Shown here one piece after another: positions 401-13,961 of a DNA stretch of 29,083 nt. Location: positions 1 to 29,083 of the forward strand of contig JBFIHP010000001.1 in the NCBI GenBank assembly GCA_041601735.1, read 5' to 3'. The notes beneath the pieces are model-generated. The model was not told where the DNA came from, did not search any database, and saw only the letters and a list, made by a program, of their open reading frames with translations. This DNA comes from Planctomycetota bacterium. Lineage in GTDB: Bacteria; Planctomycetota; GCA-002687715; DRQF01. Within the stretch, counting starts at the first letter, position 1, and each line of letters starts with the position of its first letter. The translations under genes and the position numbers were made by a program.

Positions 401-2299
401 ATGCTTCGCAGACCCGAGACGTCCTTCCCCGCGATCGCGGCCGGCCTCGCGATCCTCCCGATCCTCGCGCTCTTGGCCTGCTCCGGCGGCAACGGCGGCA
501 ACGATGGCGGCTTCGCCGCCGCCAGCGCGACCATCGGCCCCGGCGGCGGGCAACTGAGCTCGTCCGACGGACGGCTCAGCCTGATCTTCCCGGCCGGGGC
601 CGTCGCGGCTCCGACCCTGATCACGATCACGCCGCTCGCGGCCGCCGATCTGTCGCCGGCCGCGCAGGGGCTCGAGCCCGATCGGGCCTACCGGATCGAT
701 CCGGCCGGGATGACTCTCGCCCAGCCCGCGCAGCTCTCCTTCGACATGTCGGCCGCCGTACTGAGCGAGGGGACGGGGCTGCTCCCGGTGCCGCCCGTGC
801 GGGTCGTCTTCGCCGACGACCCGACGGAACCTCTCCCGGGTCTGAAGACGCTGCTCGACTCCGTCATCGGGCTGCCGCGCGCCGACGCCACGATCGGACG
901 TCTGGGCGAGCTGCTCTTCCACGAGAGCCGCTACGGCAACGTCACGGTCACGCCGCCCCTGTCGATCCCGGCCGGCGGCTCCGCGCCCGTCACCGCCACG
1001 ATCGATACGAGTCTCTCGACCGACGGTTCGAACGCGAGCTGGCGCTCGGTGACGACCAACGTGACCGACGACCTGTCCGACACCTTCGTGCCCTTCACGG
1101 GGAGCTACAACCTCTTCTGCCCCGGCATGGCGACCTCCGGCGGCGTGACCCTCACGATCAAGTACACCGCCCAGATCCAGCTCGGCACGCCCGAGGGAAT
1201 CCTGAATCAGTCCGAGGAGGCCGTCGCCGAGTTCGTCTTCCCGGTGGTCTGCCAGGGCATGACGGGCGCTTCGGTGATCCCCGGCGTGGTGTCGCTGGCC
1301 GGCATCCTGGACTCGGTCGAGAGCATCCAGGTGATCTCGCGTCCCGGGTCGAACTTCGAGCCGACCGGTCACCCGATCGCGCAGCTCGCCTACCTGCTCG
1401 TCGCCGGCGAGATCCCGGGCGGCGGCGGCCCCGGGGCCGCGATCGTCGATCCCAGCAACTGGACGCTCCCGTCGTTGATCCCGGTCGGCGGCCTCGGCAC
1501 CGCCTTCGACGCGCATCTCATCCCCTCGCCCGGGGGCACCCGCGAGGCCCTCTTCACCAGCGGCACCGAGGGTTTCCTGATCGAGACCCTGCCGGGAGGC
1601 AACCTCGCCTCCGGCGGACTCCTCAGCATGGGCTTCCACGAGGACGCGAGCGAGGTGGCCGACGATCCGGCGAACGGCATCGCGGCGGCCATCGGCGCCA
1701 CCCTGCGGATCGCGAGCATCGACGACTCGCTGGGCGTCCAGTTCCAGGACTACGGCTTCTCGCAACAGGTCCGTTCCGCGGCCGTGAACGCGACCAGGAC
1801 GCGGGCGCTCGTGATCCGCGCCACGAGCAACGATCTCGTCGAGGCCATCCTCGACCCCACGAGCGGCCTCGTGATCTCGGAGAACCTCGTTCGCGGCCTG
1901 GGCAGCGCTCCCCGGCGCATCCGCTGGGACCCCTCGAGCGGTCTCGTGGGCATCTCCGACTTCGTCGACAGCACGGTCACGGTGCTGAGCTGGGACGGTG
2001 CGACGACGCCGAGCATGATCGGCACCGCGAACGTGGGGCTGGGACCGGTCGGGATCGACATCGTGGATGGCAACGTCCTCTCGGTCGGCTTCGGCGACGA
2101 CTCCTTCACGCGGATCGGCGTCGATCTCATCAACCTCAGCATCGCGCAGGTGACGACGCTGCCGATCCCCTTCACGCCGGTGAACGGCACGAGCTTCAAT
2201 CCGGGTCACGTGAAGGCCATCGGGGACGCCGACAAGAGCGTGGTCATCAGCAACTTCGGTGACCAGTCGGTGACCTTCCTCGGCAACGCCTATCCCTAG
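401..2299 (+). CDS. Lipoprotein with N-terminal ZU5-like domain and C-terminal beta-propeller (YVTN/YncE-like)
   Basis: SD GAGGAG. Lipobox LLA-C27 followed by a Gly-rich linker. ATIGPGGGQLSSSDGRLSLIFPAGAV...ITITP...YRIDPAG resembles bacterial ZU5. C-terminal blade-like repeats: GSAPRRIRWDP..GISDFVDSTVTVL, GLGPVGIDI..SVGFGDDSFTRI, VISNFGDQSVTFL. Confidence 0.75.
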   Translation: MLRRPETSFPAIAAGLAILPILALLACSGGNGGNDGGFAAASATIGPGGGQLSSSDGRLSLIFPAGAVAAPTLITITPLAAADLSPAAQGLEPDRAYRIDPAGMTLAQPAQLSFDMSAAVLSEGTGLLPVPPVRVVFADDPTEPLPGLKTLLDSVIGLPRADATIGRLGELLFHESRYGNVTVTPPLSIPAGGSAPVTATIDTSLSTDGSNASWRSVTTNVTDDLSDTFVPFTGSYNLFCPGMATSGGVTLTIKYTAQIQLGTPEGILNQSEEAVAEFVFPVVCQGMTGASVIPGVVSLAGILDSVESIQVISRPGSNFEPTGHPIAQLAYLLVAGEIPGGGGPGAAIVDPSNWTLPSLIPVGGLGTAFDAHLIPSPGGTREALFTSGTEGFLIETLPGGNLASGGLLSMGFHEDASEVADDPANGIAAAIGATLRIASIDDSLGVQFQDYGFSQQVRSAAVNATRTRALVIRATSNDLVEAILDPTSGLVISENLVRGLGSAPRRIRWDPSSGLVGISDFVDSTVTVLSWDGATTPSMIGTANVGLGPVGIDIVDGNVLSVGFGDDSFTRIGVDLINLSIAQVTTLPIPFTPVNGTSFNPGHVKAIGDADKSVVISNFGDQSVTFLGNAYP

Positions 2300-2319
2300 A
2301 CGTCGAGAGGGGTGACGGA

Positions 2320-2360
2320 GCGACGAGACCCGGCGATGCGAAGAGGGCCGGGCTCGTCGC
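2320..2360. terminator. GC-rich stem-loop between convergent genes
   Basis: GCGACGAG-A-CCCGGC pairs with GCCGGG-CTCGTCGC (14 bp, one bulge, 12-nt loop). There is no clear U-tract. Confidence 0.5.
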
Positions 2361-7455: not shown

Positions 7456-7502
7456 TCCATCACTCCCACTCGATGTTGACCCATGGACACGGGAGTCGAA
7501 CC

Positions 7503-9809
7503 ATGCCGAGGATGCCCTTGCGTGTTCTGTCTTCGCTTCTTGTCGCGGCCGCGCTCGGCGCCGGCTCGTTCGCCCAGGTCTCGATCGTGCCCACCGAGGT
7601 GCAAATGCCGGGGACCCAGGCGCTTGAGGTCGGGACCCCGCAGTCGGTGAGCCACTGCGACAACTGTCACGGCGACTACGACCCGGCGGTCGAGCCGATG
7701 CACAACTGGTCGGGGAGCATGATGGCGCATGCCGGTCGCGACGCGATCTACTGGGCGGCCACCGCCGTGGCTGAGCAGGATTTCCCAGGTGCGGGCGATC
7801 TCTGCATCAGGTGCCACAGTCCGCGGGGCTGGTACGACGGTCACTCGACACCGACCGACGGTTCCGCGCTCGTCGCCTCGGACGGTGAAGGCGTCGAATG
7901 CGACGTCTGTCACACCATGACGAACCCCGACCGCTCCGAGCACCTCGGCACCCAGTTCGCCCCCTTCCTGGCGCACGACGGCGGCACGCCCCCGAAGGGG
8001 CACTACGGCAACGGCCAGCTCGTCCTCTGGGACGGTCAGGCGAAGCTCGGCCCCTACGCCAACGCGACCGCCAATCACCAGACGATGGCGAGTTCCTTCC
8101 ACCGGTCCTCGGAGTTCTGCGGGAGCTGTCACGACGTCTCGAATCCCGTGACCGGTGATCTGGCCCACAACTTCGGCGCCGCGCTCCCGCTGCCCGCCGG
8201 CAGCTACAGCGGCGTTCCGGGAACTCCAGTCGCCACCAAGGCGGCCTTCAACAACCCGCCCTACCGCTACGGCACCTTCGAACGCACCTTCAGCGAGCAC
8301 GTCGCGAGTGCCTTCCCGACGCTGAAGGTGAGCGACTACGGCACACTGCCCGCCGAACTGCAGGCCGGCTCCATCGCGATGGCCCGGAACGCGGCGCTCC
8401 AGGCCAGCAACGGTCAAGGCGTAGACTACGTCAGCGGCACGCGCCACTACAGCTGTCAGACCTGTCACATGCGGGCGGTCTACGGTCAGGGTTGCGACAA
8501 GAACCCGCCGTACCGGACCGATCTCCCGCTGCACGACCTGACCGGCGGCAACACCTGGATGCCGGACGTCCTCGTCTACCTCGACAACATGAACAAGCTC
8601 GTCCTCGGCGGCGGTCTGAACTCCGACCAGCTCGCGGCGCTCGCGGCCGGCAAGCTGCGGGCTCGTCAGATGCTGCAGGATGCGGCCGCGCTCGAGGTCG
8701 CCGGCAACGAGCTCAAGGTGATCAACCTCACCGGGCACAAGCTCATCTCCGGATTCCCGGAGGGTCGGCGGATGTGGTTGAACATCAAGTGGTACGACCA
8801 GGCCGGCACGCTCCTGCGCGAGGACGGCAAGTACGGCTCGATGACCGTGACGATCGACGGCAATCAGGTGCTCGTCGATACGATCCTCGATCTCGCCGGC
8901 ACCAACACGCGCATCTACGAGAGTCACGGTGCGATCACCCGGGAGTGGGCGAACCAGCTCATCGGCCTCGGCGTTCCGGCGAGCCTGCCGGTGAGCTTCG
9001 ATCGCGTCCTCGGTACGGTCAGCTACACGCTCGGCAACGTCGCGGCGCAGGCGCCCGGCACCCATCACGAGTCGCTGCGCGTCGTCCTCCTGAACTCCGT
9101 GGTGAAGGACAATCGCATCCCGCCCTTCGGCTTCCGCCACGACGACGCCCTGCAGCGCAACTGTCTGCCCGTCCCGGCGAACCAGTACGGCGATCCCGGT
9201 CCCGGCGGGGTCTACGATCACTGGGACAGCCTGCAGCTCGCGCCGCCCGCGGGGGCGGCCACGGCGACGATCGATCTGCTCTACCAGGCGACGAGCTGGG
9301 AGTTCGTGCAGTTCCTGCACCTCGCCAACGACGGCTCGATCGCCCACCTCGCGAATGCCGGCGCCGATCTTCTCGATGCCTGGCTCAACACCGGCATGGC
9401 GACGCCGGAGATCATGGCGAGCACGACCTGGACCGCGCCGCCGCCGCCGCGCGAATTCGGCATCGCCGATCTCACTTCCCTCGGTCGCGATGCCCTGGGC
9501 AATCCCGTCGTCCGGAAGACCTTCAACGCCGGCGACGGCGTCGGTCTTCGGGTCCGAGTCGAGGACACGAACGGGGCGCCCGTAGCCGACGTCGCGCTGA
9601 CGATCGAGATCCGCAGCCGCTTCGCAGAGCTGCCGCTCGCGACCCTCACGACGACGAGCGACGCGGCCGGAGAGGCCCTCGTCGTCTGGCGGTCCAAGCA
9701 GGGCATGAGGAGCGGTCGCTATCGCGCCATCATCGCGGCGGCCGTCAGATCCGGCGACTTCTTCCTGGGCGAACTCGGCGTCATGAGTCATGATTTCGAA
9801 TTGCGCTGA
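7503..9809 (+). CDS. Secreted pentaheme c-type cytochrome (c554/c552-like heme region) with C-terminal Ig-like domain
   Basis: Five CxxCH motifs: CDNCH, CIRCH, CDVCH, CGSCH, CQTCH (7656-8468). Signal peptide ending GSFA-Q. A PPPP linker leads to an Ig-like tail (LRVRVEDTNGAPV...TTSDAAGEA). Start 7503 is preferred over 7473 because of the SD. Confidence 0.9.
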   Translation: MPRMPLRVLSSLLVAAALGAGSFAQVSIVPTEVQMPGTQALEVGTPQSVSHCDNCHGDYDPAVEPMHNWSGSMMAHAGRDAIYWAATAVAEQDFPGAGDLCIRCHSPRGWYDGHSTPTDGSALVASDGEGVECDVCHTMTNPDRSEHLGTQFAPFLAHDGGTPPKGHYGNGQLVLWDGQAKLGPYANATANHQTMASSFHRSSEFCGSCHDVSNPVTGDLAHNFGAALPLPAGSYSGVPGTPVATKAAFNNPPYRYGTFERTFSEHVASAFPTLKVSDYGTLPAELQAGSIAMARNAALQASNGQGVDYVSGTRHYSCQTCHMRAVYGQGCDKNPPYRTDLPLHDLTGGNTWMPDVLVYLDNMNKLVLGGGLNSDQLAALAAGKLRARQMLQDAAALEVAGNELKVINLTGHKLISGFPEGRRMWLNIKWYDQAGTLLREDGKYGSMTVTIDGNQVLVDTILDLAGTNTRIYESHGAITREWANQLIGLGVPASLPVSFDRVLGTVSYTLGNVAAQAPGTHHESLRVVLLNSVVKDNRIPPFGFRHDDALQRNCLPVPANQYGDPGPGGVYDHWDSLQLAPPAGAATATIDLLYQATSWEFVQFLHLANDGSIAHLANAGADLLDAWLNTGMATPEIMASTTWTAPPPPREFGIADLTSLGRDALGNPVVRKTFNAGDGVGLRVRVEDTNGAPVADVALTIEIRSRFAELPLATLTTTSDAAGEALVVWRSKQGMRSGRYRAIIAAAVRSGDFFLGELGVMSHDFELR

Positions 9810-9850: not shown

Positions 9851-10816
9851 ATGACCGATCGCCTGATCCTCGGCCTCCTGGTCCTGCTCCTCGGTAACGT
9901 GTGGAGCTTCGCCCAGGAGCCGGAACCGCCCCTGACCGGACAGGCCCCGGAGCCTTCGCCGCCGCTCGACGTCACCGAGAAGACCCGCAAGGACGAGAAG
10001 GCCCTGGCCCGGCTCGAGCGGCCGGGCAAGATCCTCTTCGAGGACGGCTTCGAGTCGGATGACTCCTACGCCAACTGGTTCGAGATCCGCGGCCGAGAAG
10101 ACGAGCGCGCAAAGATCCTTCGGGACCGGAAGCTCGCGCATTCCGGACGGGGGCTGATCCGCTTCCGGGCGCCGGAGAACGGCGGCAAGGAATCGGGCTC
10201 GGGAGCGAGCGCCTGGCTGGGCGCCGCCGGTCACGAGCGCATCTACTTCCGCCGCTACATCCGCTTCGCCGCCGACTACGACCAGGGCAACCTCAATCAC
10301 ACCGGCGGCGGGCTCGCGGGCGTCGCCACCGACGGCAAGTGGGACGGCATGGGCTCGGCCGGCAAGAGGCCGCGCGGCGACGATCGCTTCAGCTGCGGCT
10401 TCGAACCCTGGCGCGCCTGGGGTCGGGAGGAGTCGCCCGGATACCTGTTCCTCTACACCTACTGGATGGACATGAAGCGCGACCGCGACGGCAACTACTG
10501 GGGCAACATGCTCCAGCCCGACGAGAAGCGGCGCATCGTGCCGCCGCGCGACCGCTGGGTCTGTCTCGAGCAGATGATCGGCGTGAACGAGGTCGGCAAG
10601 GCCGACGGCGAGGTCGCGGCCTGGATCGACGGCGAGCTCTACCTCCACATGACCGGAATCCGCTGGCGCACGAGCGAGAAGCTGAAGGTGAAGCGCTTCG
10701 ACATCGGCATCTACATCCACCGGGCGACGCGCGACAACATCGTCTACTACGACGACGTCGCGGTCTCGACCGGCTACATCGGCCCGAAGAAGGCCGACTC
10801 GAAGTCGAAGCGCTGA
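9851..10816 (+). CDS. Secreted polysaccharide-lyase-like / ConA-type beta-jelly-roll protein
   Basis: Signal peptide ending SFA-Q. FEDGFES, IYFRRYIRF..DYD, PRDRWVCLEQMI..N..GKADGEVAAWIDG and YYDDVAVS are typical of this fold family. Activity is not established. Confidence 0.65.
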   Translation: MTDRLILGLLVLLLGNVWSFAQEPEPPLTGQAPEPSPPLDVTEKTRKDEKALARLERPGKILFEDGFESDDSYANWFEIRGREDERAKILRDRKLAHSGRGLIRFRAPENGGKESGSGASAWLGAAGHERIYFRRYIRFAADYDQGNLNHTGGGLAGVATDGKWDGMGSAGKRPRGDDRFSCGFEPWRAWGREESPGYLFLYTYWMDMKRDRDGNYWGNMLQPDEKRRIVPPRDRWVCLEQMIGVNEVGKADGEVAAWIDGELYLHMTGIRWRTSEKLKVKRFDIGIYIHRATRDNIVYYDDVAVSTGYIGPKKADSKSKR

Positions 10817-10868
10817 GGGGGCAGCTCGATCCGCCGTGGCCGATCGGGCGCGGGGGCGAGCAGAGAAG

Positions 10869-10894
10869 CCCCGGGCCTCGCTCGAGGCCCGGGG
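10869..10894. terminator. Perfect inverted repeat, probable terminator between convergent genes
   Basis: CCCCGGGCCTCG-ct-CGAGGCCCGGGG. On the minus strand it is followed by pyrimidine-rich CTTCTCT. Confidence 0.65.
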
Positions 10895-10930
10895 AGATCC
10901 CACGAGCGCGTCCGCCGCGCCGCGAGGGCG

Positions 10931-12331
10931 CTACCAGGTGGACTGGTGGGTGTGCGAGCCCAGGAGCGTGGTCCACTGGAGCATCACGACCAGGAAGTCG
11001 TCGCCGACGACGTGATCGTCGTACCACCTCGCCTCGAGTCGAAGACGGTTGTTCGCGCTCATGTTCCAGGTCACCCAGGCGCCGATGTCCCAGCTCGACC
11101 CCCCCTCGACCGGGACCTCGAACCAGTCGAAGGCGACGCCCAGGCTCAGCTCGCGATCGAGGTGGTACTCGCCCCAGACATGGAAGCCGAACGAGTCGTC
11201 CGTGAGCACGCCGCCGTCGGCCGGGTCGCCGGATTCCCGCCGGTCGAAGAGGAACTCCCCCTGGAGCACGAAGCCTGAGCCGTCCCCGGCGTCGATCGCC
11301 TGGTAGGTCAGATCGAGGCTGACGACGAGCTTCTCGAGGTCGCGAACGAAATCGGTCGTACCGCCGAGGTCCTCGAACAGCGTCCGTCGTTCCGGCGCCC
11401 AGAGCAGGCTGCCGCCGATCTCGATCAGGTCGTCGCCGCCGAGCTCGATCCGGGTCGCGAGCCTGGCCGTGTAGGCGAAGTTGCCGAGGTCGCGGCGACC
11501 CGGGAGATCCTCGTGATCGTCGCCGTGGTGGTCCTCGAGCGCCAGCGGCCCGGCGATGGCGTGGGCGTCGCCGTCCGGCGAGTTCAGGAAGCCCAGACTC
11601 CAGCGCAGCTGCGCGCCGCGACCGATCTCCGTCACTCGATGCAGCTCGACGCCCGTGCCTCGAAGCGTGCCGCCGAGGAACTCCTGGATGACGCCGGGCT
11701 TGTCCACGAAGGGCAGCTCGTGCTCATGCAGGGGCGATGTCCGGCCGTGATCGACGTTGAAGCGGCCGAACTTGAGGCGGAGGTCGAGCGGCAGGAGATC
11801 ACTCGCCACTCCGTAGGCTTCCTCGAGTTCGACCTCCTCCTCGGTGAAGAAGACCGCGACGTAGTACTCGAGGCCCTGATCGACCTCACCCGCGAAGTCG
11901 ATCTCGACCCCGCGCAGGATCCAGCGATCGTAGCTGTCGAATCCTCCGTCGCCGGTCGAGCCGGCGAAGACGAAGTCGCCGACGACACCGATGGCCGGGG
12001 CCCGCGCCCCGCCTCGGCCCGCCGCGTGATCGTGTCCGTGATGGTCATGGTCGTGACCCTCGTGCACGAGGGCGTCGATGCCCGATTCGAGTTCGTGATG
12101 GGCTTCTTCCGCGAGTCGCCCGACATCGTCTCTGAGGTCGCGGATCTCGGACTCGAGACCGGTGATCCGGGCCTCGTAGGCGCTACGGATCTCGGCGATC
12201 CTGGCCTGGTAGTCCTTCGATATCCGCTCGAGCCTGGCGTCGAGATCATCCTCCTGGCCGAACAGGGGCAGTCCCATGGCGACGAGGAGCAGGACGGGGG
12301 CGACGGCCCCCGGAATCCTTCCGTGGTTCAT
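10931..12331 (-). CDS. His-rich outer-membrane beta-barrel (putative Zn/Ni/Co uptake porin) with N-terminal coiled coil
   Basis: Signal peptide ending LFG-Q, then a coiled coil and HEGHDHDHHGHDH (12026-12064). Family-like motifs LRGVEIDF, ELEEAY, LKFGRF..HG...LHEHELPFVDKP, and C-terminal GSHTHQSTW. Alternating aromatic beta-strands. SD GGAAGG lies 8 nt before the ATG. Confidence 0.8.
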   Translation of the reverse strand: MNHGRIPGAVAPVLLLVAMGLPLFGQEDDLDARLERISKDYQARIAEIRSAYEARITGLESEIRDLRDDVGRLAEEAHHELESGIDALVHEGHDHDHHGHDHAAGRGGARAPAIGVVGDFVFAGSTGDGGFDSYDRWILRGVEIDFAGEVDQGLEYYVAVFFTEEEVELEEAYGVASDLLPLDLRLKFGRFNVDHGRTSPLHEHELPFVDKPGVIQEFLGGTLRGTGVELHRVTEIGRGAQLRWSLGFLNSPDGDAHAIAGPLALEDHHGDDHEDLPGRRDLGNFAYTARLATRIELGGDDLIEIGGSLLWAPERRTLFEDLGGTTDFVRDLEKLVVSLDLTYQAIDAGDGSGFVLQGEFLFDRRESGDPADGGVLTDDSFGFHVWGEYHLDRELSLGVAFDWFEVPVEGGSSWDIGAWVTWNMSANNRLRLEARWYDDHVVGDDFLVVMLQWTTLLGSHTHQSTW

Positions 12332-12442
12332 GATGGCATCCTTCCTGGCTGTTTCGTTTCCGGAACGGACGTCGGGAGGTCCGGCCGCGACCGCAGGGAA
12401 TCCCCCGCGGCCTCGGCTCGGCCCTCCGCCGGTCGTCGTGGG

Positions 12443-12823
12443 TCAGGACAGGTCGGAAGGCGGGGCGCGCGACGGGAGGAGGTGCGGCCTCGGGGTCGGG
12501 GCCGGCTCGCTCGGCAGCTCGGGGCGCGGACAGGCAGGCAGGTCGGAGACGACCAGGGCCGGGCCGTCGAAGTCCGCGGCGAGGCTCGCCCCGATCTGGA
12601 TGCAGACCGGGCAGTCCCGGCCGTCCTCGTCATGGTCCGCCGGGAGATCGTCGGCGCCCTCGTGGCCGTGCTCGGCTCCGGAGCAGGAGTGTCCGAAGTC
12701 GATGGGGCCGTGCTCGGGGCCGTGCACGTGGATGTGCAGCAGCTCGGCCAGGAGGCCGAGGATCACGAGCGCGATCGGGAGCAATCCGGGTCGCGAGAAG
12801 GTGCCGGGGGCGAGCGGGGACAT
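12443..12823 (-). CDS. DUF2946-like leader protein: TM + His-rich + CPVC + Pro-rich + C-terminal RAPP
   Basis: 126 aa: hydrophobic LLPIALVILGLLAELL, 9 His, CPVC motif, ending LLPSRAPPSDLS. It lies directly upstream of an outer-membrane metal transporter gene. Confidence 0.8.
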   Translation of the reverse strand: MSPLAPGTFSRPGLLPIALVILGLLAELLHIHVHGPEHGPIDFGHSCSGAEHGHEGADDLPADHDEDGRDCPVCIQIGASLAADFDGPALVVSDLPACPRPELPSEPAPTPRPHLLPSRAPPSDLS

Positions 12824-12829
12824 GGTCGG

Positions 12830-12835
12830 AACTTA
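12830..12835 (-). promoter_or_regulatory. -10 element TAAGTT; predicts a leaderless mRNA for the RAPP ORF
   Basis: TAAGTT-N6-ATG(12823), with no SD. Confidence 0.5.
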
Positions 12836-12944
12836 GTGGGAGTCGGGACGGCCCGCAAGAGAAGGGCCCGGCTCGCGCGCCGCGTCGAGTCTCGGGGCCG
12901 GGTTCGCGGGGGAGCGCTCGCGGGAGCGCGGGAGCGGCAGCCGA

Positions 12945-13961
12945 TCAGGGCGCTCCCGGGGCGATCTCGAGGACGGCGGCGCCGTCGAGGCGGCCCCGGC
13001 GGAGATCGTCGAGGGCGCGGTTCGCGTCCTCGAGGGCGTAGCGCGCGACCCGGGGGCGAAGGTCGGTCCTCGCCGCCAGATCGAGGACCTCCCGGGCGTC
13101 CGCGCGGGTCAGGTTGGCGACCGAGCGGATCTGGCGCTCCTCCCAGAGGAGGCGATAGGGGAAGCCCGGGATGTCGCTCATGTGGATGCCTCCGCAGACC
13201 ACGATGCCGCCCTTCGCGAGATCCCCGAGGGCCTTCGGCACCAGCTCGCCCACGGGCGCGAAGACGAGCGCGGCATCGAGCTTCAGGGGCGGCTCCTCGG
13301 TCGAGGCGCCGGCCCATGCCGCGCCGAGCGAACGGGCCAGATCCTGCGCCGCCTCGTCTCCTTCGCGGCTGAAGGCGTAGACCTCGCGGCCCTCGGCCAG
13401 CGCCATCTGCGCGACCAGGTGGGCCGCCGCGCCGAAGCCGTAGAGGCCGACACGGCGCGCGCCCTCGCCCGCGAGCCGCAGCGTGCGCCGGCCGATGGCG
13501 CCGGCGCAGAGGAGCGGCGCCGCCTCGACCTCGTCGAGTCCGGGGGGAATGGCCTGACAGAAGTCGGCGCGGGCGATCACATGATCGGCGAAGCCGCCGT
13601 CGACGTCGCAGCCCGTGAAGCGCGCGGCGTCGCAGAGGTTCTCGCGGCCCTCGGCGCAGTAGGAACAGGAGCCGCAGGCCGAGGCCAGCCAGGTGACGCC
13701 GACGCGGGCGCCGACGAGGCCGGCGCCGAGACCGGGGCCGACCTCGCGGATCTCGCCGACGATCTGATGGCCCGGGACGACGGGGTAGCGGGCGCCGGGC
13801 AGGTCGCCGTCCGCGAGGTGGAGGTCGGTCCGGCAGACACCGCAGGCCCGCACCCGGATCAGGATCTCAGCCGTCTTCGGCCGGGGCAGCGGACGCTCCT
13901 CGAGCAGGAGCGGCTCGCCCGGCGCCCTCAGGGCCATCGCTCGCATCATGTTCGCGGTCAT
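12945..13961 (-). CDS. Zinc-dependent alcohol dehydrogenase (MDR superfamily)
   Basis: CGVCRTDLH, GHQIVG, structural Zn motif CGSCSYCAEGRENLC, LLCAG, nucleotide-binding GLYGFGAAA. SD GGAGG, and -10 TAGAAT at 13991-13986. Confidence 0.95.
   Translation of the reverse strand: MTANMMRAMALRAPGEPLLLEERPLPRPKTAEILIRVRACGVCRTDLHLADGDLPGARYPVVPGHQIVGEIREVGPGLGAGLVGARVGVTWLASACGSCSYCAEGRENLCDAARFTGCDVDGGFADHVIARADFCQAIPPGLDEVEAAPLLCAGAIGRRTLRLAGEGARRVGLYGFGAAAHLVAQMALAEGREVYAFSREGDEAAQDLARSLGAAWAGASTEEPPLKLDAALVFAPVGELVPKALGDLAKGGIVVCGGIHMSDIPGFPYRLLWEERQIRSVANLTRADAREVLDLAARTDLRPRVARYALEDANRALDDLRRGRLDGAAVLEIAPGAP

Follow-up and report, generated by a model that had tools for sequence, protein, structure and literature searches.

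In the 29,083-nucleotide stretch of DNA analysed here (the window; positions 1 to 29,083 of contig JBFIHP010000001.1, assembly GCA_041601735.1, from a Planctomycetota bacterium), a porin gene on the reverse strand is preceded by a small upstream open reading frame (uORF) of 126 amino acids. This uORF is probably a cis-acting regulatory leader of the DUF2946/CruR class, in which translation would arrest at a C-terminal RAPP motif, the arrest would unmask the Shine-Dalgarno (SD) sequence of the porin gene, and zinc would release the arrest. The reading is built on the anatomy of the leader, its conservation, the fixed spacing of its motifs, the co-varying pairing of its end with the porin SD and a zinc-type ZnuABC context, all of which are observed directly. 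Precedents for such control exist. Two leaders that sense metals and act in cis, CruR and CutF, have been described (PMC9426467, PMC9973294), and in vitro the ribosome on CruR halts when a pair of Pro codons fills the P and A sites (PMC12992588). No arrest motifs are stronger than RAPP and RGPP, which are refractory to elongation factor P (EF-P) (PMC12992588).

Anatomy and conservation of the leader peptide

The leader ORF, a putative DUF2946/CruR-like arrest peptide by its Pfam match and its orthologues, occupies positions 12443..12823, with an ATG start and, after 126 codons, a TGA stop; this and all other features lie on the reverse strand unless stated otherwise. A hydrophobic helix at about residues 13-29 (12737..12787; Kyte-Doolittle mean up to 2.25) may act as a signal-anchor or signal peptide. 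It is preceded by Arg11 and followed by an acidic stretch, and its topology, judged from hydropathy alone, is probably N-in/C-out. The next segment, rich in His and acidic residues (residues 30-64, 12632..12736), holds 8 of the 9 His residues of the leader (residues 30, 32, 34, 38, 45, 52, 54, 64 and 114) and is the proposed metal-binding partner of the CxxC motif, CPVC, at residues 71-74 (12602..12613). A spacer (residues 75-118, 12470..12601), Pro-rich from residue 97 to its end, leads to the RAPP arrest motif (residues 119-122, 12458..12469), which places CxxC 48 residues from the Arg. The tail S-D-L-S and the stop follow; the second Pro codon, the four tail codons and the stop make up the stretch 12443..12460, which contains the anti-Shine-Dalgarno CCUUCC (12455-12460). 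The initial annotation, made from the sequence without database searches, had described a 126-aa ORF with an N-terminal transmembrane (TM) segment, 9 His, CPVC, a Pro-rich spacer and RAPP at 12469-12458, four codons before the stop, and had placed it on the same strand 111 nt upstream of the porin gene. All of this was found. The interval given there, 12329-12835, contains the ORF and is too wide: on one side it runs through the intergenic region into the start codon of the porin, and on the other it takes in 12 nt ahead of the uORF ATG.

The window peptide has a single Pfam match, to DUF2946 (PF11162; 22.7 bits, E 1.7e-4). The alignment runs over profile positions 32-117 of 117 and leaves out about the first quarter of the model. 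The same family is matched by 13 of 19 leader orthologues (E<0.1, best 2.9e-5), and no other family recurs among them. According to Roy et al. 2022, the family is defined by a CxxC motif, by RAPP near the C-terminus at a conserved distance from it, by an export signal and by a place at the head of metal operons with long intergenic gaps (PMC9426467). The export signal, either a signal peptide or an N-in/C-out TM segment, is present in >95% of DUF2946 members (PMC9426467). The window peptide has the sequence hallmarks of the CruR family, and its operon position is indicated, as gene order only, by the 111-nt gap and by the porin-znuACB arrangement in relatives. The kinship with DUF2946-type CxxC and RAPP peptides suggested earlier is thus upheld by a near-threshold but sole Pfam match and by motifs, spacing and export signal that are the published hallmarks (PMC9426467). 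For the Planctomycetes, the phylum of the window, only "a few" DUF2946 homologues have been mentioned (Roy et al., PMC9426467).

A word-indexed homologue search with the window peptide returned only the peptide itself, and leader orthologues were reached through the neighbouring porin gene, which has orthologues in 16 genomes from its own order; the rest of the phylum yielded weaker relatives. In total, 73 porin loci were compared, 19 of them close loci with usable flanks and 54 sampled across Planctomycetota; the genomes are related and are not independent samples. An upstream ORF of the same type is present at about 64 of the 73 loci, and the consensus build is a TM segment, HHH, CxxC, 45-52 residues, R[A/G/S/D/P]PP, 1-14 residues and a stop. 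All 19 close loci have a same-strand ORF with this build directly upstream of the porin. The encoded peptide starts with a basic N-terminus and a hydrophobic helix (a hydrophobic segment being present in every aligned orthologue), continues with HHH or HxH and then CxxC, and leads through a variable linker to R[A/G/D]PP, with 2-8 residues left to the stop. The mean column identity of the 19-leader alignment is 23%. Only M1, C71, C74, R119, P121 and P122 are invariant, H52 is nearly so, and the distance from CxxC to the Arg is kept within 46-52 residues. A linker whose length is held constant while its sequence drifts, and which leads into the strongest arrest core known, has the properties of a ruler through the ribosome tunnel and not those of a folded domain.

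Across the 54 phylum-wide loci, the upstream ORF was recognized in about 45 (36 by a strict script, 3 by inspection and 6 in a low-GC lineage), while 7 loci have no visible leader ORF and 2 lie at contig ends. Over 60 loci the arrest motif is RAPP in 24, RGPP in 23, RPPP in 6, RSPP in 5 and RDPP in 2. The low-GC planctomycete leaders (L071, L073, L075, L078, L084, L091 and L111) read CQ[VI]CQW and then, at the same 48-residue distance, IRPPP in place of RAPP or RGPP, a natural variant of the arrest core. The two expectations of the initial annotation that could be addressed in related genomes have therefore held: the Arg and the Pro-Pro of RAPP are invariant in the 19 orthologues and the motif recurs at about 45 of the 54 further loci, and the ORF-porin pair itself is found at the same 19 of 19 and about 45 of 54 loci. 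The His-rich sensor had been regarded as an addition in the window copy; this was wrong, as H52 is nearly invariant and HHH before CxxC is a conserved part of the subfamily.

The family extends well beyond these loci. A profile of the 19 peptides matched 1510 representative clusters out of 1.84 billion proteins. Among the best 149 of the 1510 representatives, 147 end in R[AGD]PP, all 147 with CxxC 45-52 residues upstream (mode 48), and HH or HxH stands within 25 aa before CxxC in 125 of the 149. The leader is also present at four further loci from large contigs and in some metagenome-assembled genomes (MAGs) labelled Myxococcales. Relatives of the porin-znuAC arrangement occur in MAGs labelled Methylomirabilota, with no leader seen, and Myxococcales, with the leader present (L113, L114, L119, L126). 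Judged by these sequences, the leader-porin-znu system is not confined to Planctomycetota, unless the binning or the labels of the MAGs are wrong. Three distant family members lie on contigs of less than 2 kb. On one of these, a metagenome contig (L105:265-1701), a RAPP leader of this kind precedes a gene for a 372-aa protein that carries a long His run and is no porin; because of this neighbour, the leader family appears to head other metal-related genes too. Small Cys-rich lipoprotein-like ORFs lie upstream of the porin at two other loci (in porin-strand coordinates, the ORF ending at 1255 in L077 and that ending at 1481 in L087), the second of which has no visible RxPP leader.

The possibility of a spurious ORF in GC-rich DNA was rejected on the strength of this conservation, of pN/pS and of motif simulation. 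Between close pairs of leader ORFs pN/pS is 0.3-0.7, which places the frame, as judged by substitutions over its length, under moderate purifying selection as a protein. In this DNA of 70% GC, R[AG]PP alone is not unusual: the six frames of the window hold 20 copies, and Markov simulations give about 18. When all features are required together, namely a reading frame of 60 aa or more in which R[AG]PP lies no more than 10 residues from the stop and follows CxxC by 45-52 residues, the window has one case and the 200 simulated windows have none.

Upstream of the leader start, weak boxes resembling -35 and -10 elements (TTGCGG, 17 nt, TAAGTT; 12830..12858), picked out by eye and speculative, end 6 nt before the uORF ATG. 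A promoter and terminator scan of the window region gave no promoter and no intrinsic terminator at its thresholds. RNA sequencing runs were also looked through, and none contains the locus. Clearer boxes of the type TTGACx, 17 nt, TAxxxT end 6-9 nt before the leader start codon at L008, L010, L013, L014 and L019-L021, and no SD is visible at the leader starts that have them. From this arrangement, the mRNA that encodes the leader may be leaderless or almost so. A crude k-mer comparison of the sequences preceding the uORFs gave no shared operator-like motif such as a Zur box.

Predicted pairing of the leader end with the porin Shine-Dalgarno sequence

The intergenic region of 111 nt (12332..12442) folds into a single long, imperfect hairpin that is topped by a strong stem-loop at 12383-12412, and the porin SD, GGAAGG (12340..12345), read from the sequence, lies 8 nt before the ATG. 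In the minimum-energy fold of the uORF end together with the intergenic region, CCUUCC, formed by the second Pro codon and the next Ser codon, pairs with this GGAAGG at the base of the hairpin. The duplex between the window tail and SD has an energy of -14.8 kcal/mol, with z -2.4 and -2.0 vs shuffles.

The pairing was then compared between loci, using the 24 nt from the first Pro codon against the SD region, with start codons in the 60-locus set assigned by rule. In the 19 close loci, the cognate tail and SD pair with a mean of -15.4 kcal/mol vs -11.5 kcal/mol with the SD regions of other loci. In the 60 loci the cognate mean is -14.3 kcal/mol vs -12.2 +/- 0.4 kcal/mol for GC-matched non-cognate pairs (permutation p<5e-5), and cognate pairs are also more stable than their dinucleotide shuffles (Wilcoxon p 4.5e-6), z being -2 or lower in 21 of the 60. 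The helices vary in sequence from locus to locus and often take in the UGA stop and the last Ser codon (UCCUGA vs UCAGGA), a pairing that may explain why Ser is so frequent at the C-terminus of the leader peptides. In full-length ensembles, 13 of 19 loci give the SD a probability of 0.33 or more of being paired with the stretch that a stalled ribosome would cover, and forcing that stretch open raises mean SD accessibility in the 19 loci from 0.30 to 0.47. This co-varying pairing suggests that a ribosome stalled at the end of the leader would unmask the porin SD and with it porin translation. A scan of 10500-13500 with Rfam gave no riboswitch or leader family.

The porin, its ZnuABC partners and the metal

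The porin gene (10931..12331) encodes 466 aa. Its AlphaFold2 model (pLDDT 79) consists of a signal peptide, a coiled coil at residues 27-92, a His-rich linker at about 90-103 and a 16-strand beta-barrel at 113-458. Foldseek matched the model to general porins, OmpT, OprP, OprO and DcaP at E 1e-9 to 1e-13, including OprP 2o4v at E 1.8e-10 and DcaP 6eus. By sequence, the window porin has no match in Pfam at E up to 1, Porin_O_P (PF07396) included; Porin_O_P is matched by 7 of 19 porin orthologues (best E 1.9e-8). A PDB sequence search with the porin profile gave coiled-coil noise only, and a related-locus search with the window porin as query returned no relative. The porin profile matches 194 of 401 Planctomycetota genomes. 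The protein is thus like the OprP/OprO phosphate porins in its 16-strand barrel and like DcaP in its N-terminal coiled coil, and it differs from all of these by the lack of a Pfam match and by conserved His motifs. Several conserved His-containing motifs lie in the barrel, with H202 and H460 invariant. The description "His-rich porin" in the initial annotation suits the window copy, which has the His-rich linker, but not the family, as the N-terminal His run is not conserved in orthologues. The conserved His motifs and the constant ZnuABC partnership point to a role in metal uptake, which has not been described for OprP, OprO or DcaP.

At 9-10 of 12 orthologous loci with wide flanks, the porin is followed on the same strand by genes for ZnuA (PF01297), an ATP-binding cassette (ABC) ATPase and an ABC-3 permease, and znuA-znuC(-znuB) follows the porin at 53 of the 54 phylum-wide loci. 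By this association, the simplest reading of the porin is that it lets zinc through the outer membrane as part of an uptake system. Among solved structures, the nearest to ZnuA is the zinc-binding ZnuA of Synechocystis. In the alignment, His stands where the manganese binder MntC has Glu, and His is present at all three ligand positions in 54 of 54 ZnuA proteins compared; NCBIfam was unable to separate zinc-binding from manganese-binding proteins here. The partnership with ZnuABC and the three-His ZnuA point to zinc as the best candidate, the likeliest metal on these sequences. The earlier guess of a metal other than copper (zinc, nickel or cobalt) gains support from the znuACB genes behind the porin in relatives. 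The proposed non-TonB target is a porin by its model, though the usual target is the porin together with ZnuABC, not the porin alone.

The window itself has a reduced arrangement. Its porin is the last gene before convergent neighbours, and its leader is taken from this gene order to control the porin alone. The possibility that znuACB once stood behind the window porin was considered, and no trace of it was found. The znuACB genes of the same genome lie on another contig, without a porin or an RxPP leader. On contig C115 of this genome, a lipoprotein-like ORF of about 92 aa with a lipobox and a His/Asp-rich C-terminal tail (L036 ~2049-2330, minus strand) overlaps the start of a second znuA-znuC-znuB set that lacks both porin and RxPP leader; the ORF may be another type of accessory or leader linked to zinc. 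On the forward strand of the window, a 321-aa ORF (9851-10816) with a weak polysaccharide-lyase-14 match is convergent with the porin, and a 778-aa protein (7473-9809), two genes from the porin, has five CxxCH motifs and weak multihaem-cytochrome and Ig-like matches.

The proposed switch, its alternatives and its meaning

From these observations we infer three things: that the ribosome arrests, which metal is sensed and in which direction this metal acts. The N-terminal helix would target the nascent chain to the membrane, and the ribosome would arrest with the two Pro codons of RAPP in the P and A sites. At that moment CxxC would be about 48 residues from the peptidyl-transferase centre, just out of the exit tunnel, with the His cluster already outside, so that the whole site of three His (His3) and CxxC, about 48-90 residues from the centre, would lie at or beyond the tunnel exit and the translocon. 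The stalled ribosome would cover the last uORF codons and the stop, the stretch that pairs with the porin SD in free mRNA. The SD would be exposed and porin translation turned on, and in relatives the znuACB genes behind the porin would be turned on as well. When metal is plentiful, most likely Zn(II), its binding by the nascent His3 and CxxC site would compact the chain, pull on it and release the arrest. The ribosome would then terminate, the hairpin would re-form, the SD would be masked and the uptake genes would be off.

Several points weigh against this reading. The window peptide scores 22.7 bits, 1 bit under the DUF2946 gathering score of 23.7. In the window ensemble the probability of the tail/SD pairing is only 0.17, and the fold of the whole region is no better than shuffles (z -1.04). 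About a third of the loci have no clear anti-SD pairing, some of their start codons possibly being mis-called. No znu genes lie behind the porin or anywhere else in the window, and because of this the zinc link of the window copy is drawn by homology only. The direction, in which metal releases the arrest, is argued from the logic of uptake systems and by analogy with CruR. CxxC is a classic Cu(I) motif. Both studied family members, CruR and CutF, sense copper (PMC9426467, PMC9973294), and CutF works in the opposite way, copper inducing its stalling (PMC9973294).

These last points lead to the most serious alternative, that the leader senses copper, nickel or cobalt, or that a CutF-like, metal-induced arrest switches the porin on at excess metal. 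The absence of znuACB behind the window porin would agree with it, and so would the location of His-only CutF-like clusters beside nickel/cobalt HupE/UreJ genes (PMC9973294). It is nevertheless unlikely, since 53 of the 54 sampled loci pair the porin with an importer of ZnuABC type whose binding protein has the three His of the zinc type, and an importer induced by its own substrate makes little physiological sense. Two Cys with His also form a standard Zn(II) site. A second alternative keeps the same arrest leader and changes the output to that of Bordetella CruR, where the stalled ribosome blocks loading of Rho and release leads to Rho termination before the target gene, here the porin. CruR, the closest system in motif architecture and spacing, works in this way (PMC9426467). 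The intergenic regions are long (median about 100 nt, maximum 424), and several in orthologous loci are rich in C and poor in G, such as L012 with C 0.49 and G 0.30 and L011 with C 0.29 and G 0.16. In the window, however, C and G are equal (40 each of 111), no C-rich/G-poor stretch resembling a Rho utilization (rut) site is present, and the tight hairpin would make a poor Rho loading site; a model with Rho only would also leave the co-varying tail/SD pairing unexplained. Rho as the output is therefore rather unlikely, although the two outputs could coexist.

Two further explanations dispense with metal-released arrest altogether. The ORF could encode a small, stable protein that is anchored in the membrane, binds metal in the periplasm and serves the porin and ZnuABC as chaperone or accessory, with RxPP as a structural or sorting feature. 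A His cluster with CxxC would suit a metallochaperone, the moderate purifying selection along the gene is compatible with one, and some CutF-like proteins, such as CzcI, have no Pro motif (PMC9973294). Yet the 44 residues between CxxC and RxPP are fixed in length and unconserved in sequence, as expected of a tunnel ruler and not of a folded domain. Few 4-mers are avoided as strongly in bacterial proteomes as RAPP and RGPP (PMC12992588), but the motif is invariant here at 1-14 residues from the stop, and the CruR and CutF proteins are undetectable in vivo (PMC9426467, PMC9973294). This explanation is very improbable. The least probable is that the peptide monitors a non-metal signal, either the Sec/YidC export of its own TM helix, as do SecM, VemP and ApdA, or the formation of disulfides at CxxC in the periplasm. 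The RAPP arrest peptides that were discovered earliest are mostly secretion monitors (PMC7897499, PMC10987492), and genes for DsbA and thioredoxin, too, have RAPP/RGPP uORFs with Cys pairs in front of them (PMC12992588), but the genes downstream here code for a porin and an ABC importer of metal and for no part of the Sec, YidC or Dsb systems, and the conserved His cluster beside CxxC points to metal binding.

The preferred reading, a zinc-released arrest that unmasks the porin SD, can be set beside systems already studied. CruR (Bp2923 of Bordetella pertussis; PMC9426467) shares with the window leader the form of a small exported peptide, the position as first gene of a metal-uptake operon and an outer-membrane importer as target; the CxxC-RAPP spacing is 49 vs 48 here, and the intergenic gap is 162 vs 111 nt. 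Its target is a TonB-dependent transporter with a PepSY protein, whereas here it is a 16-strand porin, with ZnuABC in relatives. CruR responds to copper through Rho termination, whereas the metal here is likely zinc, a His cluster stands before CxxC, and the RNA evidence points toward SD unmasking. CutF of Rhodobacter capsulatus (Ozturk et al. 2023, PMC9973294; bioRxiv 10.1101/2025.02.05.636593) is an exported DUF2946-like leader whose stalling melts an SD-shielding stem, the same output logic as proposed here. It differs in having CxxxC and an EF-P-dependent PPP, in place of CxxC and the EF-P-refractory RAPP/RGPP (RPPP being found only in the low-GC lineage), and in that copper induces the stalling and turns on a detoxifying multicopper oxidase, whereas here the target is an importer and metal would be expected to release the stall. 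ApdA, ApdP and SecM with RAGP (PMC7897499, PMC10951233, PMC12992588) share the C-terminal arrest core and the N-terminal export signal, and their stalling controls a downstream gene, often through exposure of its SD, as proposed here. These peptides monitor Sec/YidC and have no metal motif, in contrast to the conserved His3 and CxxC and the metal-transport operon of the present family.

Known targets of DUF2946, CutF-like and RAPP/RGPP uORFs are TonB receptors, PepSY proteins, copper chaperones, multicopper oxidases, RND efflux systems, HupE/UreJ, and Dsb or thioredoxin proteins (PMC9426467, PMC9973294, PMC12992588). Neither the CutF paper nor the RAPP-motif paper mentions zinc or ZnuA, and the CutF paper mentions no porin; in the CruR paper, the section on synteny has neither zinc or ZnuA nor a porin. 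A literature search on stalling uORFs with zinc, znuA or porin returned nothing relevant. In a Caulobacter study, a DUF2946 gene lies beside a Zn/Cd efflux system. What is new here is probably the target (porin and ZnuABC), the probable metal and the SD-unmasking output, the sensor-arrest module being already known.

Bacterial zinc uptake is generally described as controlled by the Zur repressor. Zur-regulated systems, in which ZnuABC works with the TonB-dependent ZnuD or ZnuK, share with the present loci an outer-membrane entry protein, ZnuABC and an expected repression by zinc. The loci described here differ in that an arrest leader appears instead of, or beside, Zur, and in that the outer-membrane part is a porin, not a TonB-dependent receptor. 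The gene arrangements suggest that translation arrest, rather than or besides a DNA-binding repressor, helps control zinc import in many of the Planctomycetota sampled. The broader claim, that in Planctomycetota and some Myxococcota-labelled MAGs a nascent-peptide zinc sensor of His3 and CxxC releases an RAPP/RGPP arrest and re-masks the SD of a porin-ZnuABC operon, is put forward tentatively, as a possible rather than a probable generalization.

If true, this would be the first zinc-responsive translation-arrest switch and would reveal a dedicated, porin-based outer-membrane entry route for zinc that does not depend on TonB. It would also extend nascent-chain metal sensing to zinc, as the studied DUF2946 leaders sense copper only. 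The natural series of arrest cores (RAPP, RGPP, RSPP, RDPP and RPPP) at a fixed distance from the sensor is useful for studies of the way in which a ligand bound outside the tunnel brings about the release of an arrest within it. For the window, a function is proposed for two otherwise unannotated genes, and for a poorly studied phylum the switch would offer a mechanistic handle on metal homeostasis.

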